Assembly: GCA_003249165.1 (NCBI GenBank) | Contig: QKJV01000332.1 | Span: 1 to 61,705, forward strand | Source of the DNA: Desulfobulbaceae bacterium | GTDB taxonomy: Bacteria; Desulfobacterota; Desulfobulbia; Desulfobulbales; SURF-16 | Length of the DNA stretch: 61,705 nt | Reading direction: 5' to 3' | Part shown: positions 508-61,705 of the stretch, in pieces | Position numbering within the stretch: position 1 is the stretch's first letter | Layout of the letters: the number at the start of each line of letters is the position of its first letter | Notes under the pieces: generated by a model | Seen by the model: the letters and a program-made list of their open reading frames with translations, nothing else | What the model was told of the DNA's origin: nothing | The model's database searches: none | Position numbers and translations under genes: made by a program

Positions 508-822
508 TTAGTTAATCATCCCAAAATGCTTCAACGCATCCACAATCGCCTTTTCTTTCTCATCTGGACAATTCGGTTGCTTCGCATCCTCTGACTTAGC
601 CAGATTATAATTCTCCCCAACCTCTAATCCACATTTCCTTTTTACCTGCGAAATATAAAGATTAGAAACCTTAAGTCCATGCTCTTTCAACACATAATCC
701 TTTATCTCCGCATAAGTCGCTTTCGTCTCTACACTTGTCACATCCAAATCATCCAAATCAAGATCTACCGCAATTCGATCACTCGGTTTTTGTTGGGACA
801 ACAGAACAACCGTCTCAACGTG
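508..822 (-). pseudogene. displaced 3'-terminal fragment (long C-terminal tail) of a RumA-family methyltransferase gene
   Basis: The track's 97-aa ORF starts at a TTG. The frame stays open upstream and reads ..ST|HVETVVLLSQQKPSDRIAV..MIN*. HVETVVL is the sequence that follows DMFPRT in the intact gene end at 61457-61522. The frame is closed by TGA at 835-837. Confidence 0.7.
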
Positions 823-1082
823 GGTTGAGATTAGTCAACTGCTGCCCGATTTTAAGATTTTTGAAAATCACCGTTGAGTGTGTAGTTTTTTATTTTTTTC
901 TACACTCACAAGGGTTCAGTGGGCAGGGGAAATAAAAGAGGTAAAAACTACAGTTTCAAATTCATCTTGCAACTTCATAAGTAGTAGCATCAACTAGTGG
1001 CTAATGAGTATTCTTAATAATAATCTGATTTTCAATGGATATGTCTATTCGTTTTTTAATGTTGTAGAAGCTAGTTACATTT

Positions 1083-2030
1083 TTATGATTGACCATATGA
1101 CCTAAATAAACCAGATAAGAATGCAGTTCTAATTTTATTGTATTCTGATCTGAAAAACATACATTCTTTTATACATACAGTGCACCCATTATTTCTTGAA
1201 AAAGGTACAGCACATTTTTTATAATCAATACATTGCTTGGAACCATCTTCAAATGTCACAGTTTCTTTATATATAGCACCTCCCGGACATTTCTTAACAC
1301 ATCGATTACATGTTTTACAAAAATCATTAATCCAAAGATGGTCATTATGATCCTCTATCGGTAAATTCTCAATATCGGTATAGACTGCAGCCAGCCTTAA
1401 AGACGGTCCTTGAATTGAACTAATTAACATGCCATGTTTTCCAATAACGCCCATTCCTGCTTTTTGAGCCAATAGAGGGTAATTCACTTCTCCACCCAAT
1501 GAGGGTCCAGCTGCTGCATTATAACCTCTATCATTAAGAAAATCTTTTATTCGATTAACTTGAACACATAACTCATAATAGGTCCTAAAGATTTCTTTTT
1601 CGGCACCTTTCGAAGGTGCAGTATTGATAATATTCGGGTTCATTTCCATCACTAACACTACTGCGTTTGGATAGATAATCAGTTTATCATCAAAAATATA
1701 GGAAGGATCAACCTTCGCAAATCCAATATCGCTTGCTCCTAATTTTCTGGCTAATTCTTTCATATCTTCCAAATCTTTTGTGGTGATTTCCTTTATGGGA
1801 TTTTGAGGCTGCTTATATAGCTCTTTATAAGTTTTTCGCATTTGTTTAAGCGAACCTAACATATACTTATATAGATTTGGTAATGATTTGGCCTTGGTTT
1901 TAATGCTTCCATACTCTAAAACAATTTGAGGCACATTTAGCCCCACATGGGCATTCTCACTTGGACTTATATATGGCCGACTTTTATCAACGTGTTTGTT
2001 GATATTTGGCATTATTGACTTGATATCCAT
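1083..2030 (-). CDS. QueG / reductive-dehalogenase-like 4Fe-4S oxidoreductase (paralog 3)
   Basis: 315 aa. C-terminal ferredoxin motifs CKTCNRCVKKCPGGAIY and CTVCIKEC. AGMGVIGKHGMLIS..RLAAVYTD block as in the QueG/RdhA family. Confidence 0.7.
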   Translation of the reverse strand: MDIKSIMPNINKHVDKSRPYISPSENAHVGLNVPQIVLEYGSIKTKAKSLPNLYKYMLGSLKQMRKTYKELYKQPQNPIKEITTKDLEDMKELARKLGASDIGFAKVDPSYIFDDKLIIYPNAVVLVMEMNPNIINTAPSKGAEKEIFRTYYELCVQVNRIKDFLNDRGYNAAAGPSLGGEVNYPLLAQKAGMGVIGKHGMLISSIQGPSLRLAAVYTDIENLPIEDHNDHLWINDFCKTCNRCVKKCPGGAIYKETVTFEDGSKQCIDYKKCAVPFSRNNGCTVCIKECMFFRSEYNKIRTAFLSGLFRSYGQS

Positions 2031-2056
2031 GGTCTGCTCCTTTCTATCATCTAACC

Positions 2057-2512
2057 CTATTCAATCAAACCTTCCACTAAATCTTTTGAATTTTGGTTTA
2101 AAAGCAGCAAATACTTGTAAAATGAATTAATATCTTCATTTTTAAAACCTTTAAACAACTCATCTTGTGCCTTTATTTTTACATCCATCAAAGAATCTAC
2201 TATTTTCTCCCCTTTTTCTGTAATATAGCAGAGGGTATTTCTCCTGTCTTTCGCATCTGCCTCTCTTCTTATAAAACCATCATCCTCAAGAATTTTAAGT
2301 GCTTTTGTCACACTTGCTTTTCCGACATTTATTAATCTGGCCAATTCCAACTGGTTGATGCCCGGACTGCTGAATATATGAAGAAAATATTCATATTGAC
2401 CCTGTTTAATCCCATGCTTTTCAACTTTCGAGCTAATAAAAAAATTTACATTTGCTGTGATTCCTCTAATCAATACACCCAATTCGTTTCCTCTCATAAG
2501 TTTACCTTTCAT
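2057..2512 (-). CDS. MarR-family transcriptional regulator
   Basis: 151 aa. Winged-helix segment LNQLELARLINVGKASVTKALKILEDDGFIRREADAKDRRNTLCYITEKGEKI. Confidence 0.85.
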   Translation of the reverse strand: MKGKLMRGNELGVLIRGITANVNFFISSKVEKHGIKQGQYEYFLHIFSSPGINQLELARLINVGKASVTKALKILEDDGFIRREADAKDRRNTLCYITEKGEKIVDSLMDVKIKAQDELFKGFKNEDINSFYKYLLLLNQNSKDLVEGLIE

Positions 2513-2560
2513 AATTCATTAACATTTTTTTAATTCACCTATGAACCAGATAGTGTTATG

Positions 2561-3634
2561 TCAGTTCTGTTTTTTCATAACGTTTTTTAATTTACTATAA
2601 GCATCCGCTCCACTTGAAAAAGGGCATACTCTAAGACATATACTACATCCAACTGTTCGCCTGTGCATTGAATGGCATTTTTCCATATCAGACGCTTTTT
2701 TATGTTGACCGATACCTTCAATATATTTCTCAACATTAATCGATTCATCATAAATGGCACCTGTTGGACATTCTCTTACACATCTTTTACAAGTATTACA
2801 AAAATCCTGTATCCACCTATGCTCATCATTGTCTGTATACTCAAAAATTTTATTCTGGATTAATATTGCTGAAATACGAAGTCTTGATCCGAACTCTTTA
2901 TTTATAACATTACCACTTTTCGAAAATCCTCCTAGCCCTGATTTCACAGCAAGCTGCGGAAGGTTAACATCTCCTCCTGCAGGATGGATAGTCTGGCATT
3001 TCACTAGGTGTTTAGCTCGTAATATGCTGGCTATTTCATTAGTGACAGCACCTAATTCTGCATAAATTCTCATCACTTCAGCTCCTGCTTCCTGAAATGG
3101 TGCTTTGTCAATTTTATCTTTTTGCATCTCTTGAATAAAAACTAATGCATACTCAAATAAAACAGGACGTGATAAGAAAACTGATTCTATAGGTATTTTG
3201 GTGTATCCAATTCTTACATCAGGATATTTTTCTTTCAAATATCTTATGATTTCAGCATAAAGTTCCTCATTGGGATAACTCTCAACCAAACACTTGTTAT
3301 TTTCTATATATCCTGTTTTCTTTATTTCTTTCAAATAGGGTCTGCAATCTGTTGATGCTCTAAACAATCCCACAAATAGTTTCTTCATATTATCTGATTT
3401 ACTAAACATGGATGTAAATGCAGGTTCATATTTATGTTTCATTTCTTCTGATTTAAACTCTGTTTTCTGAATGAATTTAAAGTGTTCTCCTATTTGATTG
3501 AATCCTTGCATTACTGCATCATCATAAGGGAATACTACGTTTTTAGCATACTTGTATAATATTTTGTGACGTAATTTTTCATTGGGTACTCCCGGTCCGA
3601 AGTATTTGATTTTCCTTCTTTTTTTGGCATCCAT
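2561..3634 (-). CDS. QueG / reductive-dehalogenase-like 4Fe-4S oxidoreductase (paralog 2)
   Basis: 357 aa. CNTCKRCVRECPTGAIY and CSICLRVCP motifs. SGLGGFSKSGNVIN..RISAILI block parallels the other two paralogs. Confidence 0.7.
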   Translation of the reverse strand: MDAKKRRKIKYFGPGVPNEKLRHKILYKYAKNVVFPYDDAVMQGFNQIGEHFKFIQKTEFKSEEMKHKYEPAFTSMFSKSDNMKKLFVGLFRASTDCRPYLKEIKKTGYIENNKCLVESYPNEELYAEIIRYLKEKYPDVRIGYTKIPIESVFLSRPVLFEYALVFIQEMQKDKIDKAPFQEAGAEVMRIYAELGAVTNEIASILRAKHLVKCQTIHPAGGDVNLPQLAVKSGLGGFSKSGNVINKEFGSRLRISAILIQNKIFEYTDNDEHRWIQDFCNTCKRCVRECPTGAIYDESINVEKYIEGIGQHKKASDMEKCHSMHRRTVGCSICLRVCPFSSGADAYSKLKNVMKKQN

Positions 3635-3645
3635 TTTATCCTCTT

Positions 3646-4593
3646 CTACTCCTTAACTTTATTCTTTGCAAAACCAGACTTGATCTTTTCATAATTACCG
3701 CAAGTAAAAGGACATTCTTTGATACATACACCACAGCCATATTTCATAAATCCTTTACTGCATTTTTCGTAGTCAATTCTGGTAGGATTAACTCCATCTA
3801 AAATAACAGGTTTTTCATAAATCGCTCCTTCTGGGCATTTTTTTATACATTTGCCGCACTTTTCGCAAAAATCTCTAATCCATGTCATGTCCTCTGTGTA
3901 TTTTATAAAATCGCCAAGATTTTCTATATTAGTGTATACAACCGAAATTCTGTTGCAAGCACCATTGCTTTTAGTTATTGCCATGCTATGTCGGCCTGTT
4001 ACAGCTATTCCTGCCCATTCGGCTGCCATTGAATAGTCAAGCTGTCCACCCATCGAGTGGTTCGGACTTGCGCCAAAACCAATATTTTGGAGAAATTTTG
4101 CAACTTTATTAGCGATGTTTCCAGTAACAGCATATACTCTTGCAACTTCAAGTTGACACTCAATGCTTGGAACATCTGCAAAAGCGTTTTTATCCATAGA
4201 CGATGAAAATACTAAAGCGTATTTATATGGAACACCACATTCTTTGAATATTTTTTCAGGTGTAACCTCAAAAAATCCAAAATCATCTACTTGTAGTTTT
4301 GTTATAAAATGAGCCAATTCATCAAAACTTTTCTTTGATATTTTGCTTTTTGTAGGCGTAATAATTTTCTTGATTAGCTTAACCGTTTCCCATAAAGTAT
4401 ATGGAAGCAAATATAATTTTTTAATGTTTTTTACAATAGCAATTATATCTTGCTTTCTAAAATCTGGTTTACGCCCTTCCACATATAGTCTTTTCTTAGG
4501 AGAATTATCATTCGAATAAATTTTTGCATATTTATTTAGTTCAATCTTCTGTGGTTCAACAACCTTGTTTAAACTTAATCCCATATTGACCAT
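3646..4593 (-). CDS. QueG / reductive-dehalogenase-like 4Fe-4S oxidoreductase (paralog 1)
   Basis: 315 aa. CEKCGKCIKKCPEGAIY and CGVCIKECP motifs. AGIAVTGRHSMAIT..RISVVYTN block. Only an 11-nt gap to the next gene. Confidence 0.7.
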   Translation of the reverse strand: MVNMGLSLNKVVEPQKIELNKYAKIYSNDNSPKKRLYVEGRKPDFRKQDIIAIVKNIKKLYLLPYTLWETVKLIKKIITPTKSKISKKSFDELAHFITKLQVDDFGFFEVTPEKIFKECGVPYKYALVFSSSMDKNAFADVPSIECQLEVARVYAVTGNIANKVAKFLQNIGFGASPNHSMGGQLDYSMAAEWAGIAVTGRHSMAITKSNGACNRISVVYTNIENLGDFIKYTEDMTWIRDFCEKCGKCIKKCPEGAIYEKPVILDGVNPTRIDYEKCSKGFMKYGCGVCIKECPFTCGNYEKIKSGFAKNKVKE

Positions 4594-4633
4594 CCTTTAC
4601 ATCTTCAAATAGTATACCAGTCAACTATATATG

Positions 4634-4662
4634 ATTATATGCTTTTTTAGTTTGCCTGTCAA
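4634..4662 (-). promoter_or_regulatory. sigma-A type promoter of the Fe-S/MarR operon
   Basis: The minus strand reads TTGACA (4657-4662), a 17-nt spacer, then TATAAT (4634-4639). A 9-mer GTCAACTAT occurs at the -35 (4658-4666) and again just downstream of the -10 (4619-4627), which could be a MarR operator. Confidence 0.55.
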
Positions 4663-4774
4663 CTATTCATCCATTACAATAGTGACAAATAAAAAGCCAC
4701 AGACAGCGATGCTCATCACACCATTGTTTGCGGCTTAAATCATATATAAAATTTATATTTATTGCATTATTTCC

Positions 4775-4984
4775 ATGGAAGCCTATATTCTAACTTACTA
4801 TTATAATGAACCATTACTCTTGTTCGGATTTGCTGCATTGCTGGCTTTTATTGGGTTTACATGTACAATCTGCTTGTCTGCCTTTGGCTCCATATTCAAA
4901 TTATTATTTTCTGAGTATTCTAAAACAACAAATACTATAATGGCGCTCTTAAAAGTGTATTGTGCTATTTCACTATTTTTATAA
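4775..4984 (+). CDS. small hydrophobic ORF (69 aa), doubtful
   Basis: Track ORF with two hydrophobic stretches. No RBS checked, AT-rich context. Confidence 0.2.
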   Translation: MEAYILTYYYNEPLLLFGFAALLAFIGFTCTICLSAFGSIFKLLFSEYSKTTNTIMALLKVYCAISLFL

Positions 4985-5173
4985 TGGCAGCGAAAGCCTG
5001 CCTTGACTGATTGAACAGCACCTTAAATAATTGATACTTCATTTTACTTAGAGATCAAATTTCTCATTTATCTCTTGGCTAATCATCATTCTGTCAATAG
5101 TCATATACTATGATTAGCTTTTCTCATACTTTTCTCTAGCAGCGACTTTACCACACAACCGATTCAAATCATA

Positions 5174-5253
5174 ACATCTAAATCGACCACTGCAAGCCGA
5201 TGTTATCTAATTCGACCACACGCAAACCCATGTTATCTAAATCGCTCTGTCAC
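5174..5253 (+). repeat. three direct repeats with ~30-bp phasing (left arm)
   Basis: aCATCTAAATCGACCAC / tTATCTAATTCGACCAC / tTATCTAAATCGCTCTG. The ATCTA starts are at 5176, 5205 and 5235. Homologous to the 61259-61338 repeats. Confidence 0.7.
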
Positions 5254-5277
5254 GTTTAAAATCATGCCTTTGGACTT

Positions 5278-5295
5278 GTTCCCACGAACAGATAT
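5278..5295 (+). repeat. inverted copy of the rumA att-core half-site (left arm)
   Basis: gttcccacgaacagatat is the reverse complement of GTTCGTGGGAAC, the core found at 5459-5562 and 61502-61522. The plus strand reads DLFPRT. Confidence 0.5.
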
Positions 5296-5372
5296 TTTTA
5301 CGATTTCAACACTTCGAATTCTCACTCTCAAACTCCGGAAAGCCTCTATTTCAAGGCTGTTCTTCACTCCTA

Positions 5373-5411
5373 CTATTTTACCCTTGACATCAATACTACC
5401 GTCTCAACGTG
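5373..5411 (-). pseudogene. short rumA 3' stub (HVETVVLMSRVK*)
   Basis: Reverse complement reads cac gtt gag acg gta gta ttg atg tca agg gta aaa tag. It parallels THVECVVLMSRAKE* at the live gene end. Upstream homology to rumA is lost at 5412. Confidence 0.65.
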
Positions 5412-5458
5412 GAACGATAGCATCAGATTGATGTCGAGTATGTGTTTTTAGTTTTGTC

Positions 5459-5562
5459 CGTTCGTGGAAATATGTCGATAGCCATTTTTAGGGTCGTTTC
5501 CGTTCGTGGAAACATATCAACATTATATTGCAACTTTTGTTCGTTCTTGGGAACATGTCGAT
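5459..5562 (-). repeat. array of three degenerate copies of the rumA crossover half-site, 41-42 bp apart
   Basis: Cores lie at 5459-5479, 5501-5521 and 5542-5562 (cgttcKtggRaaMatRtcRaY). The minus strand encodes IDIFPRT, VDMFPRT and IDMFPRT. The third copy matches the genuine core 61502-61522 at 18/21 positions. Confidence 0.7.
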
Positions 5563-5590
5563 AATTCGCACATTTGTGGCTGCCATTCAA

Positions 5591-7009
5591 TTATCCACCC
5601 AATTCCCGTATTGCTTCATCTTCATTAGCTACATCTGCCGTTTGCGGCTTCGGTAAATAGTAATACTTACCTTCCTTAATGATAAGTTCCACATCTTCAG
5701 CATAGACATCCCTCGGCTGTTCCGCTTTTCCAATTATGTGGTTGGCTTGAGAGGCTATCTCATGGGCTATAGTTTTCTTGATAGCTTTATAATTGTGCTT
5801 TTCGTCTATCCAACCCAGCGGAATCGAAATCACAGCTTTAATACCTGTCTTTGCAACCCGTTCCTTACTCAAATCAATCCTTAACGCATCGACCTGCTTG
5901 CTGTGCCATTCGCTAAGAAGTGTTCGGGTTTGCACCGACATCTCTGTGTATTTATTGTAAAGAGCGTAGCTTTGTTCAGTTGATATAGTGCATTTCCCCA
6001 ATAAATACGTTAGCTTGCTGATTTCTTCAAGAACTGCTGCTAACACATCTTGAAACCCTACTAAGGTTTTTAACTCCTCAACTACGGACTCGTATTCTTT
6101 ATAGTCGGGGTTGGGGTTCTTTTTCATAATGTCAGTTATCGTAATATTCACTTGACCCAAGAGTTCGGTTGCGGTAGCCTTTATACCCTCTAAGGCAGAA
6201 AGTTTAAGTTTTCGCTGACTGTCGTCCTCCAATATCTCTGTGCTAAACTGAGAAATCTCGCCGACGAGGGTTATCACGGACAAGATTCGGCTCTTAAACT
6301 CTCTATCTTGAAAGTCACTGATTTTACTGATGCTCTTCGTCAATGCTTCTAACTTGGAATCGATTAAGGACATATAGTATTGACCGACAACCAGAGAGGC
6401 AACATTCATCACATTGGCCGCCACGTTTGCTACCTTGGCGGTTTTCGCAATGTTCGCTGGAACAACTTCACTCGCTTTCTGTGCCGTCACAGGGACAAGA
6501 TTTGCTTGACCTTTTATTCCTTTTGCACCGTGAAAAATAGCCCGCTTTGCACCTTCCATTGCTTGGGAATCAGTAAGTTTGGCACCGGCAGGAATAACAG
6601 CCCTATAAATATTTCCAGATTGCAGTGTTTGGTTAGCCTTTTGTACCGCGACGTTTGCAGCTTTTGCGGTTTGTTGCAATGCAGCGTTCGCGGCATTGGA
6701 TGTCAGTGTTCTGCTTGCTATTTCGGCAACAGCAGGAAGCGTCTGTGATATGCGGGCAACTACCGAGCGGTCTTTGATTTCGACCAGACTGTTTTCATCA
6801 ATCTGCGTTGTCGTAGGTAGGAGTTCAATTGGTATAGATAATTCTCCGACATGCTTTCCCGTAGCTGCCAACATATCGGTTGGCATAGCTCGCTCTGTGC
6901 TTTCAGCATTGCTAAGAACAGAGCTTGTCCTTTTTCGCAAGAAAACAACCACAACCGCGATTGCGGTTATGGCAATTACCACTAATGCTATCGGCAATAT
7001 GTATTCCAT
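5591..7009 (-). CDS. membrane-anchored protein of unknown function (472 aa)
   Basis: N-terminal TM helix ILPIALVVIAITAIAVVVVFL followed by a long helical/Ala-rich region. AGGAG RBS 9 nt upstream. Last gene of the defence block. Confidence 0.6.
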   Translation of the reverse strand: MEYILPIALVVIAITAIAVVVVFLRKRTSSVLSNAESTERAMPTDMLAATGKHVGELSIPIELLPTTTQIDENSLVEIKDRSVVARISQTLPAVAEIASRTLTSNAANAALQQTAKAANVAVQKANQTLQSGNIYRAVIPAGAKLTDSQAMEGAKRAIFHGAKGIKGQANLVPVTAQKASEVVPANIAKTAKVANVAANVMNVASLVVGQYYMSLIDSKLEALTKSISKISDFQDREFKSRILSVITLVGEISQFSTEILEDDSQRKLKLSALEGIKATATELLGQVNITITDIMKKNPNPDYKEYESVVEELKTLVGFQDVLAAVLEEISKLTYLLGKCTISTEQSYALYNKYTEMSVQTRTLLSEWHSKQVDALRIDLSKERVAKTGIKAVISIPLGWIDEKHNYKAIKKTIAHEIASQANHIIGKAEQPRDVYAEDVELIIKEGKYYYLPKPQTADVANEDEAIRELGG

Positions 7010-7027
7010 CGCATATTACTCCTGTCT

Positions 7028-7378
7028 TTAGGTCTTAAATTTCGGCTTAATCAGGTCATAACTTCGACCAATCATTCTCTTCATCTCATCCTCCGGCACG
7101 TTGCCGCCGACCTTAACCGTGTTCCAATGTTCCTTGTTCATGTGGTAGGCGGGCGTGATGTCCTCAAATGCCTGCCGCATGATATCCGCTTCAAACGGGT
7201 CACATTTTAGGTTGACGCACAGCTTGCTGTGCCGCTCGTAAATCAACGCAAAGGACTTCTTATTTATCTTGTGCCGCATAACTGTCCACGCACCTGCGTC
7301 CGCTATATCGTCAAATGGGTAATCCTCGTAAGCAGCGGGGAATGTAAGGCAGAAATCGATGAGGTCTTGTCGGGTCAT
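7028..7378 (-). CDS. MmcQ/YjbR-family DNA-binding protein
   Basis: 116 aa. Family-typical FPAAYEDYPF, LKCDP and YHMNKEHWNTV segments. The start overlaps the stop of the upstream giant gene (ATGA). Confidence 0.8.
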   Translation of the reverse strand: MTRQDLIDFCLTFPAAYEDYPFDDIADAGAWTVMRHKINKKSFALIYERHSKLCVNLKCDPFEADIMRQAFEDITPAYHMNKEHWNTVKVGGNVPEDEMKRMIGRSYDLIKPKFKT

Positions 7379-10300
7379 ACACTTTCGTCCTCCACTCCAA
7401 TTTGACAGCGTACCGTGTAGTTGTCTCCCGTGATGCTAAATTTCGAATTGCAAAAACGATCTTCGCCATCAGCATAATTAAACAAATCTGAGAGTCGATA
7501 GATTTTACGTTCGTCCTCGCTCATTACAGCGGTCACCAAAACCACCTCATATTGTTGCGGGTGTTCTTCTGCAAAGTTCAATTCATTTTCTGTAATTACA
7601 AATGTAATTCCCGTCCCCGCAGTGGACTTAATTTCAACATAAATGGTTTCGCCGTTTGCGTTGGAATACTTAAGGTCGTAACCCAAACCGCCGATACCAT
7701 CAGGATTGATTCCTTCTTTTTTTGCGTTTTCCGAAACCCACATAACATTCTTGAAGGTTGATTTCATTTCTTCATAAACGAGTTTTTCAGCAAAGGCTCC
7801 CCAATCTGAAATATTTCGTTCTCGCTTCATTCCAGCCATGCGGCTTCCATTACGCACTGTGTGACCAGTGTTATTGGCGGAGTTGTTCGGCGGAGCAACA
7901 ACCTTAACCGATATTATAGGTGCGGAAGCTACGGAAGCTGTATTAAAAATCCTCGTTTCTTGTGCTTGTGCATTGTCAATGTCAGTCTTTCTGGCATTAT
8001 AAGCCTTGTTCAATTCTTCAAGATTACCAAAGTACAATAAACTCTCCAACTCCGAATCAACGAGCATATCATTTACAATTGACATATCCTTATCTTGCAC
8101 AAAGATTTCCTTATTCGCTTTCCAAGCCATGTTTGCGTCCTCTTCAGACTCTGACGAAATCACACTCCCAAACTGTTGTGAAAACTCAGCTTCCCAATCG
8201 TAATTAATGCTATTTGCAGGGTTAAAAGCGAATGTCTTGTATTTATCCAATTGCTTTAAGAATGTGCGTTGCACGCTAACAGGCTCGTTTTTAAGCATTG
8301 CAAACAATCCGTTTTTATATGAATTACTTTCATCATTTGCCCGTTTTTGTAAACACTCAAGATAAAAAGGAGTCAAGTCTACGATGACCTCGGATTTTTC
8401 ATTGAAATCATCAACATCAACTTTTAAGCCGCGTAAGACATTAATAAGTGACACTGCATTTGCCGTTGAGTTAAAATCAGCAAAATTTATAGAGTCAATG
8501 TCAGGTTCAATTGATGCAGTGCTGTCCTCACCAGCAATAAGAATGCAAGCCGAAAGAAACATTTCTTTTTCTGATTGTGTACGATTGAGGATATCACGAG
8601 ACCTTTCGAGAATGCTTAAATCATCATAATCGTGCAAGATTAAAGCGTTCCGATTGTGCGGTTCCTTCTCATATAAGGAGCGTACATATCCGAAAAGAGT
8701 GTCGTCCTGAATATCAATAGCCGTCATAAAAAGTTCAGCAATTGCGGAACAGAAGTCCACATTACTTTTTAGCTGTTTCAAACTTCCACCATTTCTTGGA
8801 GTCTGAACATAAACACAGTTTCTACCCCTGATATATGAACTGTCAGCTAATACAACCTCGCCTTTTCCGTAGTCGGCTTTTATGTAGGTACACAAACGAA
8901 CCTTCAACGCCTTCACGGTAGAGATTTCACTTTGCTTTGCAGTATCGACACGCGAGCAAAAAGCATAACAAATGAAATCGTTAAAATCTTGTTCAAAGGC
9001 AATGCTCTCTGGGTGAATGGCTGGCTCTCCGATTACAGACCCCTTGACCTTTAATGGCGACACGCCAAAATATCTCTTGATATTTTCTTGGCTTTGTCTG
9101 CTTGGTATGGCAATCAAGTTAAAGTCCTTTAGTATTTCACGACTTACCGTCTTTTCATTGAGATAGTGAACATCCTTTATTGCCACATATGTTTTTGAGG
9201 ATTTACAATACACATTTCCACTTTGTAAAAACTCGCGACATTTTGCGTTATTAGGATCGAAGTTCCTCAGACCACCTGACTTTAAAATAGATGTATAAAG
9301 AGCCTTGCTTATCTCGCCACCTTCATCAGCTTCAGGCAATGCCAATAACAATGAATATAGCGTTCCTGTGTCTAAGTCTGAATAGTCTGATGCAACGCCT
9401 ATCTGCTCCAAAATATCCTGGACGGCATTTGTTTCTGCGATTCTGCGGTTATGATTGTCGATAAAGAAGTCCAAATTAGGCGCGACAACTATGGGAGCAA
9501 ATAATGTGCCAATTTTACTCACAAACAAACATTGCTTCGGAGAATATCGGACACCCTCAACCTCTATCCAATTGCTTGTTGCAAAGGTAAAACGAAGGTG
9601 CGAAGCTAACTGCTCGCCGCTGATAGCTCTAAATTTTTGTTGATATAAATTATCGACGTAAGCACGGCTTGTGCTTGGCTCATAATCAGATAGCAATTGT
9701 CGGAGATTCTCATCATGTCGAATCCAATCAATTATGCTTTTGGTATTTGCTTTCTCAAGAATTTCATCAAGACGTTCAACCGTAACAATTTCTACGTATC
9801 TGAGAGTTGCACTGCGAAATTCCTGTTCGTTATGATACCGGTTGTCCTCTGCGAGCAGCGGGTATTTTTTTATACTTGTATATATGAGTTCTCTATAAGC
9901 CTCTGGTATTGAACGAATTGTTATTTTAGTTTTTCGCGGGAACTGGGCAACGCCTAACGCCGACAAAAATTCTCTATACTGCTGTTTTGTCAATTCGGTT
10001 AAGGCTATTCGCTTGGGTATTGAAACAAAAAGGCCATCGTTGCTATCAAACAAATTTTCAGTTACTTCATTATCGAACTCTTTCCCGAAATATAATTCGT
10101 TTGCGTTTTTCGCTTCGCCTTTACGATTTATCAATGGAATCGTCGTTAATGCAGACATTTCGTTTTTCAAAACGTTGGCTTTCCATAGCTTCCATAACCA
10201 CTCGACAGTGTCTTCATAGCACCCTCTGGTTTTCTTACTCGTTTGGTGTGCACGGCTTCTTAAGCGAGATATGACCGCGTTAATAATGTTTCCAAGGTTA

Positions 10301-11964: not shown

Positions 11965-12131
11965 TTATACGTTCTCCAAACCCTTTTTTACCGTTCTTTT
12001 ATTGATATTAACGCTCACAGAACATCCTGCATTTCCCACTGAGCGGACAGCCCTCGCAGAACGGCTTCTTCCAGTAATGCTCCTTAGCATTTATCGCGCT
12101 AAGTGAGCAGTTTATAATCATATATTTTGGT

Positions 12132-15125: not shown

Positions 15126-16510
15126 TATTCATCAACCTCCTCATCTGAAGTTTCATCGATTTCCCCCTCGGATTCTTCATCCGGCTCTTCTTCGTCTATG
15201 ATATCATCAGCTTCCGGCTCATATTGCGGAACTTCGACATTTCGGACATCCACTTTGCCGGTCACAACGTCTGAGATGGTTCTGGTACGGAGTTCTTGAA
15301 CACAAGATATTTCTTTATAAAGAGCATCAATCAATGCATCAATTTCTGCAGTTTTTGAGGGAATTGACTTAAGAATTTCCTTCTGTTCTTCCTCAGGAGG
15401 AACAAAAAACGGAATATGCTTCATTTTTTGCATCGACAAATCCCACTGTCCAATGCGTATTCCGTCCGAAAATTGAGCGAAGAAATTTACATAAACGCGG
15501 CTACGCATTGCAAAATGAAAGAATTCCTTGTTAGGAAAACGTAAATTAAAAACAAAATATGCAGGACTAACAATGCCATCATATTCTGAAACCCCATATG
15601 AGCCTTGCCACGCCTTCATTTTATTTATTACAAACTGTCCCTTGCGAACCAGCTTATATCCACTCAAATCATCAGGGATATAATTGTGATTAGTATCATA
15701 ATTGTCGACATCACGTTGTATGACTCCTTGCTCTCTGGTTACAGATAAAAGTAGCATTTCTGGATGATTTTTTTCACTGACTGAAAATAGAAACTGCCTT
15801 AATGAGCAGATATTCCAGTGAGCTGGAATCTGTGGCAACCATTCTATACCGGTGTCTTTCATTGGTACGTCATCATGAAGACCACGAGTTACAGCTCGAT
15901 TTACAATAGCTTTTTTGAGTTCAAGTAATCGTCTGATTTCACGCTTTTTCTCCTTGATGAAATGCACCATCTCCGCGATTTTCCAATCAAGGAAACGGAC
16001 AATCTGGTCTTGTTCTGGACGTGGCGGGGTGGCTAAGACTGTTCTCTTTAAGTAAGGAACAAATATCTGCCTTTGTATTGAACCAACACCCTTTGAAGCT
16101 AAAACGAACTGGTCAACCACGTCTTTATCACGAACCATATAATTTAAAAAATCAGAATTGATTTCAGTACGAGGCTTTAGAATATAGTATGCAGGGCTTA
16201 TGATTCCACGATATTTAGAAACGCCAACAGATCCACGCCAAGCCTGTTGGTTGTTTAATACGAAATCACCGACTTCTACCAACTGATACTTTGACATATC
16301 CTCGCTTGGCTTATGAACCTGTTTTTGGGAAGTAGAAGCGTAACTAACGACCCCTTTATCCAAAAATACCGACAAGAGTTCTTCATCAGAATTATTTTGA
16401 ACGGATGTAAACTTAAACATCCAAGATAAACGATTTTCTTGCCAATGCGCTGGGATGCTTCGTTCAAATGGGGACATAGATGTTTTATAGTCACAATATG
16501 GACGTAACAT
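15125..16510 (-). CDS. hsdS: type I R-M specificity subunit S
   Basis: 461 aa. Two-half architecture with duplicated blocks (GIISPAYYILKP / GIVSPAYFVFNL). Sits between hsdM and hsdR. Acidic C-terminal tail. Confidence 0.85.
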   Translation of the reverse strand: MLRPYCDYKTSMSPFERSIPAHWQENRLSWMFKFTSVQNNSDEELLSVFLDKGVVSYASTSQKQVHKPSEDMSKYQLVEVGDFVLNNQQAWRGSVGVSKYRGIISPAYYILKPRTEINSDFLNYMVRDKDVVDQFVLASKGVGSIQRQIFVPYLKRTVLATPPRPEQDQIVRFLDWKIAEMVHFIKEKKREIRRLLELKKAIVNRAVTRGLHDDVPMKDTGIEWLPQIPAHWNICSLRQFLFSVSEKNHPEMLLLSVTREQGVIQRDVDNYDTNHNYIPDDLSGYKLVRKGQFVINKMKAWQGSYGVSEYDGIVSPAYFVFNLRFPNKEFFHFAMRSRVYVNFFAQFSDGIRIGQWDLSMQKMKHIPFFVPPEEEQKEILKSIPSKTAEIDALIDALYKEISCVQELRTRTISDVVTGKVDVRNVEVPQYEPEADDIIDEEEPDEESEGEIDETSDEEVDE

Positions 16511-21223: not shown

Positions 21224-21256
21224 CAGAGGGCAACACAAAAAAAGAATTTTAAGCTC

Positions 21257-21291: not shown

Positions 21292-21328
21292 CGAGGGAGA
21301 TAACCAGCCCTCAGAACGGAGGTTCAAA

Positions 21329-55260: not shown

Positions 55261-55285
55261 TATGGTCACCCACTTTTATTTTTCC

Positions 55286-55320
55286 GGTACTCAAACCACC
55301 CTCTTCTGTCCTTTGGATAG
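55286..55320 (+). promoter_or_regulatory. conserved motif copy 4 (GGTACTCAAA-N12-GTCCTTTGGATAG)
   Basis: Same motif and spacing, upstream of the recombinase operon. Confidence 0.5.
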
Positions 55321-55338
55321 TGAAGGGAGTGGTAAAAC

Positions 55339-55595: not shown

Positions 55596-57158
55596 TTGAA
55601 AAAGGTAACAAAAATCGCTCAAAATAATGATAATCATACCGAACATTCCAAACTGCGTGTTGCGGCATATTGCCGCGTATCCACCGATAGCGATGATCAG
55701 CTGGTCAGCCTTGAAACACAAATAAAGCACTATGAATCCTACATCAATGCAAATCCCGACTGGGAGTTTGCAGGGCTTTATTATGACGAAGGCATCACCG
55801 GCACAAAAAAGGAAAAACGTCCTGAATTGCTTCGGATGATTGCCGACTGTGAAAATAAGCAAATAGACTTCATCGTAACTAAATCAATCAGCCGGTTTGC
55901 CAGGAACACTACCGACTGCCTGGAACTGGTGAGAAAGCTACTTGACCTCGGTATATGTATTTATTTTGAGAAAGAAAACATAAACACCGGGTCAATGGAA
56001 AGTGAACTCATGCTGTCAATCCTAAGTGGACTGGCCGAAAGCGAGTCGGTCTCTATCTCGGAAAACAGCAAGTGGTCGGTAAAGCGCAGATTTCAAAACG
56101 GCACCTTTAAAATATCCTATCCTCCCTACGGTTATGAAACTGATGATGGGAAGTTGGTCGTGAACAAAACACAGGCTGATATTGTCCGTTTTATATTCGC
56201 TGAAATTTTGTCCGGTAAGGGCACCCACAAAATTGCGGATGAGTTGAACCGATGCAACATACCTTCCAAGAAAGGTGGTCGTTGGACGGCGACAACTATT
56301 CGTGGGATGGTAGGAAACGAAAAATACTCCGGTGATGCCATTTTTCAAAAGACCTATACCGATGAGTATTTTAGTCGTCACTATAATTATGGTGAGCAAG
56401 AGCAATATCTTATGAAAAACCATCATGATGCGATTATCAGCCATGAAGATTTTGAAGCAGCACAGACCATCATTAATCAGCGCGGTAAAGAAAAAGGTGT
56501 GGTAAAGCATCATGGCAAATACCAGAACCGATACCCCTTTTCGGGTAAAATTATTTGCGGTAAGTGTGGCGGCAAATTCAAACGCCGCATCCATTCCACA
56601 GGCAGACATAATATTGCCTGGTGCTGTACCAACCACATATCGGACATCGGAAAATGCTCCATGAAATACATCCCCCAGTCCGATTTTGAATATGCTTTTG
56701 TCACTATGATGAACAAACTCATTTTCGGACACCAGACAGTACTCAGACCACTGCTTATAGCCTTACGAGAAATAAACTCAGATGACAGTCTGGCAACCAT
56801 ACGGGAACTTGACAAAAAACTCGAAGAAAATGCAGAACAGAGAAATGTACTGGTCGGTCTTATGACCAAAGGCTACCTTGAGCCGGCAGTATATAAAAAG
56901 AGTAATAATGAACTTTTGCAGGAGGCAGAACGTATACAACGCCAGAAGGAATCCTTACTCCGCTTTTTGAACAGCGACAGTAAAAACCAGAGTGAAGTCA
57001 GTGCAATTCTGCAATACGCTACCAAGGCGGCAATGTTGAAAGGCTTTGACAGTGATATTTTTGGGCGTTTTGTGGAGCGGATTATTGTTTACTCCCGAAC
57101 GGAAATTGGGTTTGAATTAAAATGCGGAATTACGCTGAAAGAAAGGTTGGTGAGATAA
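55596..57158 (+). CDS. large serine recombinase (1 of 3)
   Basis: 520 aa. Catalytic N-terminus [16 protein letters not shown], recombinase domain, zinc ribbon CGKCGGKF..WCC. Confidence 0.9.
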   Translation: MKKVTKIAQNNDNHTEHSKLRVAAYCRVSTDSDDQLVSLETQIKHYESYINANPDWEFAGLYYDEGITGTKKEKRPELLRMIADCENKQIDFIVTKSISRFARNTTDCLELVRKLLDLGICIYFEKENINTGSMESELMLSILSGLAESESVSISENSKWSVKRRFQNGTFKISYPPYGYETDDGKLVVNKTQADIVRFIFAEILSGKGTHKIADELNRCNIPSKKGGRWTATTIRGMVGNEKYSGDAIFQKTYTDEYFSRHYNYGEQEQYLMKNHHDAIISHEDFEAAQTIINQRGKEKGVVKHHGKYQNRYPFSGKIICGKCGGKFKRRIHSTGRHNIAWCCTNHISDIGKCSMKYIPQSDFEYAFVTMMNKLIFGHQTVLRPLLIALREINSDDSLATIRELDKKLEENAEQRNVLVGLMTKGYLEPAVYKKSNNELLQEAERIQRQKESLLRFLNSDSKNQSEVSAILQYATKAAMLKGFDSDIFGRFVERIIVYSRTEIGFELKCGITLKERLVR

Positions 57159-57590
57159 ATGGGACATACACCATATGGCTACCGGATTGAAAACGGAAAA
57201 GCGGTAATTGATGAAACAGCCAGCAAACAAGTAAAAACCCTGTTTCAGTCCTATCTGACAGGCGATTCATTAGCAACCGCTGCAAAGAAAGCTGGTATCA
57301 AAGCCTTCCATGCGGGAATCGGAAAAAATCTTCAGAATACTCACTATCTCGGTGATGAATATTATCCAGCGATTATCGACCCGGACACTTTTGAAGCCGC
57401 ACAGGAGGAACGCATCAAGCGGGCTGAAAAGCTTGGTCGTATTCGAGAACCAAAAGAAGAAATAAAGGTCGTCTATCCCACTTCCTTTCGCATCAGCGAA
57501 GGGACAAAGCGGTTTGACGACCCGTTCCAGCAGGCGGAATACGCCTATAGTCTTATAGAAAGTGAGGTGCATGAAAATGGAGGTCAGTAA
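57159..57590 (+). CDS. recombinase-domain-only protein (2 of 3; lacks the catalytic resolvase domain)
   Basis: 143 aa. [20 protein letters not shown] resembles the 'recombinase' domain of large serine recombinases. There is no STD catalytic motif. Confidence 0.65.
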
Positions 57591-59145
57591 GAATGTAACC
57601 GTGATCCCGGCAAGGAAGCATACCCGAAAGAGTAATGATGAAGAAAAACCAAAACTTCGGGTGGCTGCCTACTGCCGTGTTTCCACAGACAGCGATGAGC
57701 AATCCACCAGCTATGAAGCGCAGATTGAACACTATACTGCATATATTAATGCCTGTCCCGATTGGGAACTTGCCGGAATTTATGCCGACGATGGTATATC
57801 GGGAACTAACACAAAAAAGCGTGATGAATTCAACCGTATGATTGACGAATGCATGGCGGGTAATGTCGATATGGTTATTACAAAATCAATCAGCAGGTTT
57901 GCCCGAAATACACTTGATTGCCTAAAATATATCCGTCAGCTGAAGGAAAAAAACATATCCGTCTATTTTGAAAAAGAAAACATCAACTCCATGGATTCAA
58001 AGGGCGAGGTCATGCTCACAATTATGGCGTCACTTGCACAGCAGGAAAGCCAATCCTTAAGTCAGAACGTGAAGCTGGGTCTGCAATATCGTTACCAACA
58101 GGGTGAAATCCAAATCAACTGCAAATGGTTTCTCGGATACACAAAAGATGAGAATAAACACTTGGTGGTAGTGCCAGAGGAAGCCGAAATTGTAAAGCGC
58201 ATCTTCCGGGAATACCTTGAGGGAGCGAGTATGCTGAAAATCGCCCGCGGTTTGGAAGCGGACGGTATACAAAACGGAGCAGGTAAAGAAAAGTGGCACA
58301 CCAGCAATATCAACACAATTTTGCGGAATGAAAAGTACATCGGCGATGCCCTTTTGCAGAAAACCTACACCGTTGACTTCCTCACAAAAAAGCGGGTCAA
58401 GAATAACGGACTTGTACCACAATACTATGTGGAAAACAGCCATGAAGCCATTATCCCGCGTGAAATTTTCATGCAGGTTCAGGAAGAACTGGTTCGGCGC
58501 CGAAGCGTTCATACCAGCAAGAATGGTAAAAACAGAACTTTTAGCAGTAACCATTGCTTTTCCCAGATGATATTCTGCGGCAACTGCGGCGAAGTGTTCC
58601 GCAGGGTCCACTGGAACAACCGTGGCAAAAAGTCCGTGGTCTGGCGCTGCGTCAGTCGCCTGGAAAATACCGGACTGTTCTGCGATGCCCGCACGGTACT
58701 GGAAAGCACCATCGAGCGGGTACTGGTCACCGCTATCAACCAAACATTATGCGACAAAGACGAATTCCTTACCACCTTGCAGAGCAACATCAAAACTGTC
58801 CTATGTTATGAAAATAATCAGACACTTGCTGATATCGAAAAACGGCTGGCAGAACTTCAGATGGAACTTCTGAAACTGGCAAACTCCAAAGCTGACTATG
58901 AGGATGTCGCAGATGAGATTTACCGCCTACGTGAGCAAAAGCAACAGGTGCAAGTTGAAAATGCAGGGCGGGATGAATTGAAAAAACGCATTGCCGACAT
59001 GGGCGCTTTTCTGCGGGAACAGCCCACCGCCCTGACCGAATACGATGAGCCGCTCGTCCGACGGCTGATTGAGAAAGTCACCGTTTTTGAGGGTAAGTTT
59101 ACGGTGGAATTCAAATCCGGTGTGACCGTGGACGTGAATGAATAG
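57562..59145 (+). CDS. large serine recombinase (3 of 3)
   Basis: [16 protein letters not shown], zinc ribbon [11 protein letters not shown], coiled-coil tail. The real start is probably ATG 57577 behind GAGGTG. Confidence 0.9.
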
Positions 59146-61075: not shown

Positions 61076-61180
61076 ATAGTCCCTTCTTTCAATTAGCAAA
61101 CTTCCTGTTATTGCTACTACCAGCTATTTAATTGAACTTCACATTTTTGTCACAACACTGCTTCATCAAACTTTTTTACT

Positions 61181-61210
61181 ATTATAATTGATAAGTTGTA
61201 AAAATGTAAA
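61181..61210 (-). promoter_or_regulatory. candidate promoter of the RES gene
   Basis: The minus strand reads TTTACA (61205-61210), an 18-nt spacer, then TATAAT (61181-61186). Confidence 0.45.
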
Positions 61211-61219
61211 ACTACGTCT

Positions 61220-61338
61220 ACATCCAACCTGCTCTGTCAACCTCGGATTTTTGAAAAAACATCTAATCTGCTCTGTACGCTACCTCTAACATCTAATCTG
61301 CTCTGTACCGAACACCTGACATCTAATCTGCTCTGTAC
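61220..61338 (+). repeat. three perfect 20-bp direct repeats at exactly 30-bp phasing plus one degenerate copy (right arm)
   Basis: acatctaatctgctctgtac occurs at 61259, 61289 and 61319. A degenerate copy catccaacctgctctgtcaa lies at 61221. Confidence 0.8.
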
Positions 61339-61363
61339 GGTTCAAAATTTGCCCTTTTGACTT

Positions 61364-61380
61364 ATTCCCGTGAACCGATA
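61364..61380 (+). repeat. inverted copy of the rumA att-core half-site (right arm)
   Basis: attcccgtgaaccgata. Positional homologue of 5278-5295. Confidence 0.45.
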
Positions 61381-61456
61381 ATACCACAGTTTCTGATCAT
61401 CGGTTTTCAACCAGTAAAATTCACAAATCCCCTTATTTCAAGCCTTTTACACACAC

Positions 61457-61705
61457 TTACTCTTTCGCCCTTGACATCAATACCACGCACTCGACGTGCG
61501 TCGTTCTTGGGAACATATCAACAGCCCTTGCCCTTAATATATGATAGCCTTTTTTACAAAAGAACGCACAGTCACGTGCAGCTGTTGCAGGATTGCAGGA
61601 AATCATCACTATTTTAGATGGTGACATTTTAAGTATCGCTTCAAGAGTATTGCTATCACAGCCTTTGCGAGGTGGATCGACAACAATTAAATCAGGGGCA
61701 GTATT
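61457..61705 (-). CDS. rumA: 3' end of a RumA/TrmA-family rRNA (uracil-5)-methyltransferase gene (5' part off-window)
   Basis: Reverse complement reads NTAPDLIVVDPPRKGCDSNTLEAILKMSPSKIVMISCNPATAARDCAFFCKKGYHILRARAVDMFPRTTHVECVVLMSRAKE*. The DPPR.G, SCNPAT.ARD and VDMFP.T.HVE blocks are family hallmarks. Missing from the ORF track because the gene start lies off-window and the longest in-window Met-initiated piece is short. Confidence 0.8.
   Translation of the reverse strand, partial: NTAPDLIVVDPPRKGCDSNTLEAILKMSPSKIVMISCNPATAARDCAFFCKKGYHILRARAVDMFPRTTHVECVVLMSRAKE

Follow-up and report, generated by a model that had tools for sequence, protein, structure and literature searches.

A probable tandem array of mobile elements at the rumA 3′-end hotspot, with a two-recombinase prophage next to the gene

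Introduction

The 3′ end of rumA is a described integration hotspot, mapped to codon 443 with a GA target and occupied by elements whose left ends of 101-115 codons become fused in frame to rumA, as well as by tandems of vanG elements and ICE-r (Srinivasan et al. 2014, PMC4120198); counting back from the stop once the gene is reconstituted, the GAG of the target is codon 11 (PMC4120198). Single serine integrases of ICEs and IMEs also target rumA (Ambroset et al. 2016, PMC4701971). Huang et al. (2016, PMC5053989) reported elements accreted in tandem at rum, with three att sites, and Huang et al. (2026, PMC13651849) described phage-ICE tandems there that are driven by IntI and IntE, the two integrases of the phage; the Streptococcus rum tandems include prophages of the Φm46.1/SMphage type that carry these two integrases (PMC5053989, PMC13651849). 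The hotspot, the in-frame element tails and the phage/ICE tandems were already published in 2014, 2016 and 2026, contrary to an initial annotation of the locus studied here, to which a hotspot of this kind did not seem to have been described as such (PMC4120198, PMC4701971, PMC5053989, PMC13651849).

Here we analyse a locus of this kind in a 61,705-nucleotide stretch of DNA (the window, meaning the whole stretch), which very probably holds three or more mobile elements in tandem at the HVE codons of the known rumA last-codon hotspot.

Results and discussion

Three copies of the rumA tail core

The host gene enters the window at its right edge and is read on the minus strand:

61499-61705, minus strand: 3′ part of the host rumA (RumA/RlmD-type), ending at the crossover; PF05958 match
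61457-61498, minus strand: tail A (HVECVVLMSRAKE and stop), start of the prophage P′ arm; homologous to P′ arms by LSR3 in related phages

The window-edge fragment of the protein, 82 residues long, matches PF05958 (RumA/TrmA-type tRNA (uracil-5)-methyltransferase family) at profile positions 286-356 of 357, and the best relatives of this RumA, 75-76% identical, come from Oscillospiraceae/Ruminococcus. On the minus strand, the translation of 61457-61705 ends in ..VDMFPRTTHVECVVLMSRAKE and a stop, that of 5373-5411 (stub B) is HVETVVLMSRVK and a stop, and that of 508-822 (tail C) is HVETVVLLSQQKPSD..MIN and a stop. The shared tail core, CACGTYGAG…, encodes HVE… and lies on the same strand in copies A, B and C, and the degenerate pattern CACGTYGAGNSNGTNGTNYTGNTGTC has exactly three matches in the window (61473-61498, 5386-5411 and 797-822, all minus strand) against a chance expectation of 0.00 in 100 shuffles. 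All three copies are broken at CAC-GTY-GAG; similarity left of CAC is missing in three of three, which makes their shared codon-boundary break genuine. The initial annotation had claimed both the three tail copies in one orientation and their common breakpoint, and the agreeing translations bear it out.

Counted from GAG, tail A (ECVVLMSRAKE) is 11 codons long, which makes GAG the 11th codon from the stop, as at the published hotspot. Tails A, B and C are each in frame and element-derived, and the homology between copies A and B reaches far beyond the stop codon (61321-61498 against 5235-5411, 67% over 178 bp).

A temperate siphovirus next to rumA

Island 1 (5412-61498) is a single whole prophage, a temperate siphovirus of 56,087 bp, with these parts between its arms:

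5591-18574, minus strand: cargo on the P-arm side (472-aa unknown, YjbR, TmtA, HsdR/HsdS/HsdM); Pfam, PADLOC
7375-11964, minus strand: TmtA (Tiamat defence); PADLOC, E=0, full length
12132-18574, minus strand: type I R-M, HsdR/HsdS/HsdM; PADLOC REase_I, Specificity_I, MTase_I
19062-55198, plus strand: siphovirus-type prophage core; Pfam and PHROG matches
55596-59145, plus strand: integration cassette, LSR1 + 143-aa protein + LSR3; domain matches
55596-57158, plus strand: LSR1, large serine recombinase, 520 aa
57159-57590, plus strand: 143-aa protein, partial Recombinase domain only
57562-59145, plus strand: LSR3, large serine recombinase, 527 aa
59237-61099, minus strand: 620-aa cargo gene that separates the recombinases from the att site; phrog_7835

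The full set of phage modules is present by Pfam and PHROG, in the order repressor/M78, DUF2800, SSB, PolA, Ant, primase-helicase and DNA methyltransferases, followed by TerL, portal, protease, major capsid protein, tape measure protein, tail, holin and endolysin; TerL is 72-82% identical to its counterparts in gut viral contigs. In PV036457.1, a complete relative, attP is flanked by cargo on either side, so that the defence block of the window belongs to the phage itself. The 620-aa gene has a GC content of 35%, against 45-52% in the phage and 33% in island 2, and is missing from 80 related phage loci. It had been labelled a RES gene, a label we drop: the ORF has no Pfam, NCBIfam or PADLOC match and only matches phrog_7835, a PHROG family of unknown function.

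What had been read as a recombinase triplet consists of two full LSRs plus a conserved protein of 143 aa, whose Recombinase domain is only partial. LSR1 and LSR3 are full length, as expected of a recombinase at this hotspot, with Resolvase, Recombinase and Zn_ribbon_recom domains; they fall outside the Ccr family, as the CcrA/B/C models give the window recombinases 66-140 bits against curated cutoffs of 700-900. The LSR/small ORF/LSR cassette is kept as a unit 3′ of the lysin gene in ~80 viral contigs. LSR3 is 85% identical to that of PV036457.1 and 67% identical over its full length to that of Streptococcus phage phi-SsuFJNP3_rum, a record compared with the window prophage by recombinases only, in which the LSR/small ORF/LSR order is the same and the first LSR is truncated. 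In L097, L125 and L127, as in the window, LSR3 is followed after 1.5-3.3 kb by a convergent rumA end.

Attachment arms of the phage

Two further features complete the prophage ends:

61220-61456, minus strand: non-coding P′ arm; inverted rumA-like motif and iterons
5412-5563, minus strand: prophage P arm; direct rumA-like motifs, match to PV036457.1 and L090

Tail A, previously taken for a regenerated host end, is instead the phage's own P′ arm. Related phages have homologous arms beyond LSR3, the similarity covering the tail and ~270 bp downstream of it (76% over 271 bp in L096; L125, L135 and L150 as well). Within the arm, a rumA-like motif lies inverted at 61359-61375, and four iterons (..CAGAGCAGATTAGATGT) are found at about 61220-61338. 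A scan of related P′ arms found the inverted motif at an offset of +120 to +123 in 14 of 15, and an alignment shows blocks conserved in the arm. The P arm in turn has three direct rumA-like 18-mers (5459-5476, 5501-5518 and 5542-5559), while the 18-mer that codes for DMFPRT, at 61502-61519 inside the host part of rumA, is the B half-site; the search for rumA-like motifs gave seven matches against 0.52 expected.

The attP reconstructed from junctions A and B occurs intact in PV036457.1, a complete phage genome. The window P arm reads TCGACATCAATCTGATGCTATCGTTC, then CAC; the intact attP of PV036457.1 reads CAGACATCAATCTGATGCTATCGTTC followed directly by CACGTTGAG.., with the tail HVETVVLMSRVDK and a stop. 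The final 26 bases of the P arm are identical at 24/26 positions to that attP and at 25/26 to L090. PV036457.1 has the same three direct motifs as the window, at -138/-107/-65, and the inverted motif at +123, and L090 shows the same layout. Sequence comparison identifies tails A and B as P′ arms, on the rumA side, from the phage family that encodes two LSRs and the 143-aa protein. The phage crossover is probably the CA of CAC, to judge from the dyad GACATCAAT-N15-CA-N15-ATTGATGTC, whose two halves lie at 5427-5435 in the P arm and at 61473-61481 in tail A, and the prophage may still be able to excise.

A second unit without a recombinase

Left of the prophage, the following features make up island 2 (823-5411, 4.6 kb):

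5200-5411, minus strand: stub B (5373-5411) and a second phage-family P′ arm; arm homology, motif
823-5199, minus strand: island 2 body, three Fe-S proteins and MarR; 33% GC
1083-2030, 2561-3634 and 3646-4593, minus strand: three paralogous reductive-dehalogenase/QueG-like Fe-S proteins; TIGR02486 below cutoff
2057-2512, minus strand: MarR regulator, within the island 2 body

As the initial annotation stated, no recombinase gene is found in this unit, and its distal end (823-900) shows neither phage P-arm features nor a recombinase remnant. One could read stub B as the native short tail of rumA and island 2 as native chromosome, with the prophage as the only insertion in rumA and tail C as part of an unrelated downstream element; the native tails of the lineage are indeed short, and island 2 lacks mobility genes and differs from the phage in GC content. 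Against this stand the 210 bp from B, which bear the full P′-arm signature (an inverted motif at 5273-5290, offset +122, and iteron-like repeats as well) and are 75-79% identical to the LSR3-linked P′ arms of L125, where the arm adjoins rumA, and of L135, L150 and L091. The junction between B and C, moreover, falls exactly at the CAC of the core, as expected of site-specific recombination and not of chance adjacency, and we give the native reading of stub B very little credence. Island 2 most likely represents either a second prophage that has decayed or a remnant that can be mobilised in cis. Its 210 bp on the rumA side are the P′ arm of another phage from the prophage's own family.

The left end of a third element

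The remaining left end of the window contains:

508-822, minus strand: long tail C, putative left end (P′ arm) of a single-LSR ICE/IME of ICE-r/vanG type; homologues, half-site
1-490, minus strand: candidate third-element interior, a 79-aa ORF at 251-490 and the first part of a further gene, from 58 towards 1

The initial annotation treated tail C as the original host end of rumA, with two successive islands inserted before it and the array ending at 508. In many Clostridia rumA does run on into a long tail of the same type, and since the identity of such tails to that of the window spans 33% to 90%, the tail domain can be resident in rumA. The tail in the window, however, is a near-identical disseminated variant: it has 3895 homologues, mostly orphan ORFs of 97-170 aa with 78-95% identity, the Streptococcus suis and Anaerobium copies match its DNA at 88% identity, and the sequence upstream differs in each displaced copy. 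Where it is fused to methyltransferases, the tails are 80-90% identical and the methyltransferase parts just 45-56% identical to that of the window, and the S. suis copy is the left end of a small recombinase element (IME) within a Nudix gene, not rumA. Comparison with the RumA proteins of close relatives, which had been proposed as a check, also speaks against an original long tail, as the closest relatives of the host's RumA all have short tails. Segments of 101-115 codons have, furthermore, already been identified as element ends (PMC4120198), and tail C, at 103 codons from GAG, falls within that range.

The 79-aa ORF likewise travels with the tail in other genomes and leads to a single LSR. 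It is 54-59% identical to ORFs behind the same tail in L004, L009 and L011, and in L009 the element continues to a single LSR ~8.4 kb downstream. L009 and L012 share the layout rumA, tail, cargo, single LSR; the single LSR is at the right end in L009, L012 and P0036, its ORF runs through the att site in L012 and P0036, and in L012 it runs into a second, vanG-type tail. We regard an original host tail as very unlikely and the case for it as largely refuted.

Tail C more probably belongs to a third element ("island 3"), which we infer from ~0.8 kb in the window and from its relatives. Its half-site is intact (GA, then 13 bases, then TTGTCCC) and agrees with the attP rebuilt from the S. suis junctions, GGGACAA-N13-GA-N13-TTGTCCC, the P half lying outside the window. 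This symmetric sequence and the published target (PMC4120198) point to the GA of GAG as the probable ICE/IME crossover.

The array as a whole

Site-specific insertion by serine recombinases into the rumA 3′ end, followed by tandem accretion, was the core of the initial annotation and is upheld, as are the repeated att-type junctions. It had counted two islands, where the array holds at least three elements, and both the native rumA tail and the recombinase of the third element lie outside the window. Outward from rumA, the proposed order is the 56-kb prophage, the 4.6-kb recombinase-less unit and then the ICE/IME left end from 822 leftwards, whose long tail forms the first 103 codons of an element that continues off the window. 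Each element supplies an in-frame substitute for the rumA C-terminus, so that rumA stays open after every insertion, and the outermost element is presumably the oldest arrival. Tandem insertion needs recombination of attP with a hybrid site (B + P′), which canonical LSRs do not normally carry out. That the repeats are pieces of rumA paralogues (duplicated or pseudogenised), or result from a chimeric assembly, has nothing specific in its favour in a window that is one assembled sequence, and is barely credible against the same break base in three of three copies, flanks that are known element arms, an intact attP in an independent complete phage genome and an architecture that recurs in dozens of independent contigs.

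Comparison with known systems

The Streptococcus rum tandems resemble the window in target gene and position, in the two LSR genes of their prophages, parted by a small ORF and placed after the lysis genes, in the cargo between phage core and att sites, in the three att-type junctions and in a neighbouring element of single-LSR ICE/IME type. They differ in host, which in the window is an Oscillospiraceae/Ruminococcus-like gut anaerobe and not a streptococcus, and in their phages, the nearest relatives of the window phage being gut 'Ca. Heliusvirales' records (PV036457.1, 85%). The cargo differs too, with anti-phage defence (Tiamat, type I R-M) in the window in place of antibiotic resistance. 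The window's recombinase genes are convergent with rumA; those of the S. suis record are co-directional with it. In the window, moreover, a unit with no recombinase separates the phage from the ICE/IME end. With vanG elements and ICE-r the window shares a long startless left end, either joined in frame to rumA or moved behind a different element, a likely crossover at the GA of GAG, a recombinase ORF through the right-end att (in L012 and P0036) and the tandem insertion already described for them, although it holds just the left 0.8 kb of such an element, a part in which neither its recombinase nor any conjugation or mobilisation genes are seen.

Att-bounded, recombinase-less units beside a competent element are reportedly able to be mobilised in cis in the CIMEs of the ICESt1/ICESt3 family, from the work of Guédon, Pavlovic and Bellanger. 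The window has the same arrangement, with serine recombinases at rumA in place of tyrosine integrases at fda. The parallel with SCCmec at orfX (rlmH), drawn in the initial annotation, holds in part: in both, an rRNA methyltransferase gene stays open when LSRs insert elements into its 3′ end, and SCC arrays are likewise composite, with recombinase-less pseudo-elements bounded by integration-site repeats. It fails for the target, which is PF05958 RumA-type and not RlmH, and for the recombinases, which are not Ccr, and the main element here is a phage. The locus is an ordinary new example of a well-described integration hotspot, not a new kind of system, to which the conserved rumA-mimic repeats in the phage att arms possibly add a new detail.

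Three recombination junctions at the rumA 3′ end

The 3′ end of rumA occurs in three copies, all in the same orientation:

61457-61705, minus strand: live rumA end, translation ..VDMFPRTTHVECVVLMSRAKE then stop (tail A, 61457-61498)
5373-5411, minus strand: stub B, translation HVETVVLMSRVK then stop
508-822, minus strand: tail C, translation HVETVVLLSQQKPSD…MIN then stop

At the window edge, 82 residues of the live end align with the terminal part of PF05958, the family of RumA/TrmA-type methyltransferases. The three translations are identical to those of the initial annotation, and the degenerate DNA core CACGTYGAGNSNGTNGTNYTGNTGTC has exactly three matches (61473-61498, 5386-5411 and 797-822, all minus strand), where none is expected in shuffled sequence. 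Pairwise comparison within the window found no similarity common to the three copies left of CAC, which bears out the claim that all of them break at one codon; these repeats are true recombination junctions. The proposed tandem accretion of islands in the gene end holds in outline, but its polarity was wrong, since every one of the three tails was brought in by an element and no fewer than three members make up the array: island 1 (5412-61498), island 2 (823-5411) and a third element running leftwards from 822.

A two-recombinase prophage integrated in rumA

The ORFs at 19-55 kb make up a complete siphovirus-type prophage, with modules for repressor/M78, DUF2800 nuclease, SSB, PolA, Ant, primase-helicase and DNA methyltransferases, followed by large terminase, portal, protease, major head protein, tape measure, holin and endolysin. 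Located 3′ of the endolysin are two full large serine recombinases (LSRs) of 520 and 527 aa, each with Resolvase, Recombinase and Zn ribbon domains, and between their genes an ORF with only a partial Recombinase domain:

55596-57158, plus strand: LSR1
57159-57590, plus strand: 143-aa ORF
57562-59145, plus strand: LSR3

When viral contigs were scanned with the second recombinase, 80 loci came up (70-91% identity), and the order lysin, LSR1, 143-aa ORF, LSR3 is kept in nearly all of them; the 143-aa ORF, which is conserved in the S. suis rum phage and about 80 contigs of related phages (46-87% identity), is therefore a third component of the system rather than a pseudogene, and its product may act as an accessory or directionality factor. 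LSR3 is 67% identical to its counterpart in Streptococcus phage phi-SsuFJNP3_rum and 85% identical to that of the complete related phage genome PV036457.1. As in the window, a convergent rumA end lies 1.5-3.3 kb past LSR3 in three comparison loci (L097, L125 and L127), and we therefore conclude that this two-LSR phage family integrates in rumA.

The phage attachment sites can be read from both ends of island 1. Tail A, together with the next ~270 bp downstream, shows homology to the arms found after LSR3 in other phages (76% over 271 bp in L096; also L125, L135 and L150), so the live rumA end is the phage P′ arm, that is, the flank of attP on the rumA side after integration, and not host sequence. 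That it is a native gene end, as the similar short tails of close relatives would suggest, was rejected on account of the phage arm in the 270 bp that follow. At the opposite end, the 26-base stretch left of stub B (TCGACATCAATCTGATGCTATCGTTC) is found with hardly a change in L090 and in PV036457.1; in the latter it is joined directly to CACGTTGAG…, coding HVETVVLMSRVDK and a stop; this PV036457.1 junction is an intact attP. Joined to tail A, the other flank (the P arm) of the window gives GACATCAAT-N15-CA-N15-ATTGATGTC, a perfect 9-bp inverted repeat that spans ~50 bp and is centred on the CA of a His codon. As a rule, an LSR attP is a simple, symmetric site of ~50 bp. Because the size and symmetry of the joined site are usual for such an attP, we infer from the sequence that the phage crosses over at this CA, the block CACGTYGAG common to attP and attB being wider than the dinucleotide. 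Island 1 is a single prophage of 56,087 bp.

Its cargo includes a defence block:

5591-18574, minus strand: cargo block with a 472-aa ORF, YjbR, TmtA and type I R-M
7375-11964, minus strand: TmtA (Tiamat defence), PADLOC match over the full length, E=0
12132-18574, minus strand: complete type I R-M (HsdR, HsdS, HsdM)

The 472-aa protein beside YjbR has no family match. The attP of PV036457.1 is flanked on both sides by minus-strand cargo, and the block at 5591-18574 therefore belongs to the prophage; this two-sided cargo, together with the lack of any further core copy, led us to reject a separate defence island. A 620-aa gene situated between LSR3 and rumA was found in none of the relatives and is variable cargo; it has no match in Pfam, NCBIfam or PADLOC, which leaves its earlier label of 'RES gene' unsupported. 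Exact look-up of this ORF and of the 97-aa ORF of the window in public assemblies returned nothing on record.

The prophage also contains a direct repeat of ~45 bp, 84% identical between its two copies (21256-21299 and 55285-55329, plus strand; core CGGTACTCAAAC..CTCTTCTGTCCT.TGGAT). One copy falls within an ORF of the early region, the second a short way upstream of LSR1, and the repeat may be a common regulatory site.

Stub B and island 2

The 210 bp from stub B on are 75-79% identical to other P′ arms of the family, including the rumA-adjoining arm of L125, and carry both the inverted motif of these arms (at +122) and iteron-like repeats; stub B therefore comes from a second, related phage, whose P′ arm it is, and is no host tail. 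GC content in the island body is 33%:

1083-4593, minus strand: three paralogous Fe-S proteins (315-357 aa) flanking a MarR regulator

The Fe-S paralogues have weak, sub-threshold matches to the reductive dehalogenase (TIGR02486) and QueG models, and the island 2 genes have no homologues among all fetched loci. At the distal end (823-900), neither P-arm motifs nor a recombinase/LSR remnant were found. We read island 2 as a decayed second prophage or a cis-mobilisable remnant, a reading that is the least secure element of the reconstruction.

Tail C and a third element

A search with the 105-aa tail returned 3895 homologues, the best 120 of which are almost all orphan ORFs (97-172 aa, 78-95% identity) whose upstream sequence differs in each case and ends at HVE. 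Where the tail is fused to a methyltransferase (proteins P0063, P0089, P0092 and P0119; loci L002, L009, L011 and L014), the methyltransferase part is only 45-56% identical to that of the window, and the tail 80-90%. At the DNA level, tail C is 88% identical in Streptococcus suis and Anaerobium acetethylicum. In an S. suis locus (L006; GCA_044048415.1, 9880-14640), a 4.6-kb IME-like element (long tail, HTH, DUF6933, single LSR), of which the tail is the left end, is inserted in a Nudix gene at GGHVECGE, a rumA-site look-alike that is a secondary site mimicking the rumA HVE core. The two junctions of this element give an attP of GGGACAA-N13-GA-N13-TTGTCCC, and tail C of the window has the GA, N13 and TTGTCCC intact.

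Other loci have a comparable layout. In L009, rumA is followed by the tail, a homologue of a 79-aa ORF of the window, ABC-F, a NikA-like protein, AAA_21/RloB and a single LSR. In L012 (Falcatimonas sp. MSJ-15, 10196-18152), rumA is followed by an ICE-r-type tail and a ~6-kb element whose 665-codon LSR ORF runs in frame into a second, vanG-type tail of 115 codons, so that two long-tail elements stand in tandem. The 79-aa ORF of the window (251-490) is the ORF that follows the tail in L004, L009 and L011. Given this ORF, the fusions and the layouts of L006, L009 and L012, tail C opens a third element, which continues beyond the window edge; this tail had been taken for the original rumA tail, a view at odds with the discordant identities of tail and methyltransferase and with its position as an element end in the S. 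suis Nudix gene. A metagenome scan for the left end of the window gave 0 matches.

The long tail itself (~100 aa) is strongly conserved in our alignment (A2; ..KATYAEIKDYVLKEHGLKVSNLYISQVKRKCG..NYNL..CP.EKEKAI..AL.HF.MI). Neither Pfam nor NCBIfam has a model for it and the PDB has no relative, a profile search there returning one chance-level match only, and its AlphaFold model, built on a shallow alignment, has a mean pLDDT of 44.

Native rumA tails and database chimeras

The nearest RumA C-termini (at most 76% identical; Oscillospiraceae, Ruminococcus) are all short-tailed, and with the 82-aa rumA end as query, the homologues were limited to short fragments (best 76%), with no same-species empty site among them. 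In three GTDB representatives (L063, L064 and L082), the short 'VVLMSR' tails likewise come with the phage inverted motif; these tails, too, are phage arms. Many database RumA proteins ending in ..HVECVVLMSRxxx and a stop (P0121-P0137) have this motif about 121 bp downstream, and their annotated C-termini are chimeras of phage origin, right behind which contigs often break. Likely empty sites end otherwise, with HVECVVKLVRNK and a stop in L072 and HVETVVKLSR and a stop in L085, and the native tail of the rumA studied here lies outside the window. Many RumA C-termini in databases, both short ('VVLMSR..') and long ('KATY..VSNLYISQVKRKCG'), are thus element-derived chimeras, which affects annotation as well as the mapping of empty sites.

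rumA-mimic repeats and iterons in the attachment-site arms

The B half-site in rumA is a 17-24-bp sequence coding the invariant RumA motif DMFPRT. An 18-mer coding this motif, GAYATRTTYCCAMGAACG, lies 21 bp before the core in rumA and is repeated in the phage arms, which also carry iterons:

5459-5476, 5501-5518 and 5542-5559, minus strand: direct 18-mer copies, P arm
5273-5290 and 61359-61375, plus strand: inverted 18-mer copies, one per P′ arm
about 61220-61338 and about 5200-5250: iterons, conserved in 15 related arms

The 18-mer pattern search of the window gave 7 matches against 0.52 expected, the copy at 61359-61375 coming from a looser scan. The direct copies sit at offsets -65, about -107 and about -140/-148 of the P arm, and the one at -65 is present in every P arm examined (window, L090, L096, L126 and PV036457.1), while a scan found the inverted copy at +120 to +123 in 14 of 15 P′ arms of relatives. 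These offsets are conserved across divergent phages, being the same in L090, L096, L126 and L169 (about 12500). Aligned with one another (A1), 15 P′ arms have a mean identity of 65% and three conserved islands: the core with the tail, the inverted motif (CTTCGTGGGAACAAGTC), and 3-4 iterons ending in TTAGATGT, spaced ~31 bp, between the P′ arm and the first cargo gene (A1 columns 160-255).

In the papers we read, no description of this arm architecture was found, and the occurrence of rumA-mimic repeats and iterons in the arms of two-integrase phages is the sole lead here that might be new. The attP anatomy is clean, and the conserved repeats are candidate accessory sites for serine integrases; the rumA-mimic copies could be bound by the second recombinase or the 143-aa recombinase-domain protein. 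If so, they might set directionality and let attP recombine with hybrid, already occupied sites, and might therefore explain how tandems form. It is conceivable, if rather doubtful, that two-LSR phages use a higher-order, multi-site attP, unlike the simple ~50-bp LSR site.

Comparison with known systems

The initial annotation had likened this layout to SCCmec and stated that a hotspot here stacking defence, phage and metabolic cargo did not seem to have been described. The first is apt as an analogy only: the target gene differs from rlmH, and the recombinases fall far short of the Ccr models. The second is contradicted by published work. Streptococci, E. faecalis and Roseburia share the rumA 3′ end as a conserved hotspot, at which elements have left ends of 101-115 codons that lack a start and are fused in frame to rumA, and a right-end serine recombinase gene without a stop codon; vanG+ICE-r tandem insertions were also reported (Srinivasan et al., 2014, PMC4120198). 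Single serine integrases target rumA with reciprocal exchange of the 3′ end (Ambroset et al., 2016, PMC4701971), and 'tandem accretion' at rum includes ICE_ICE and ICE_prophage arrays with three att sites (Huang et al., 2016, PMC5053989). Experiments showed that excision of phage, ICE and tandem at rum is driven by two phage integrases, IntI and IntE; in the same study, cargo was found to separate the phage core from the att sites (Huang et al., 2026, PMC13651849). The Heliusvirales paper makes no mention of integration.

The rumA 3′ end is thus an established cross-species hotspot whose phage/ICE tandems have been dissected experimentally, and as a discovery the present locus has little weight. 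Its novelty lies in the host lineage and the defence cargo: it adds Oscillospiraceae-type gut anaerobes to the known range of two-integrase rum phages and long-tail ICE/IMEs, the cargo here being anti-phage defence.
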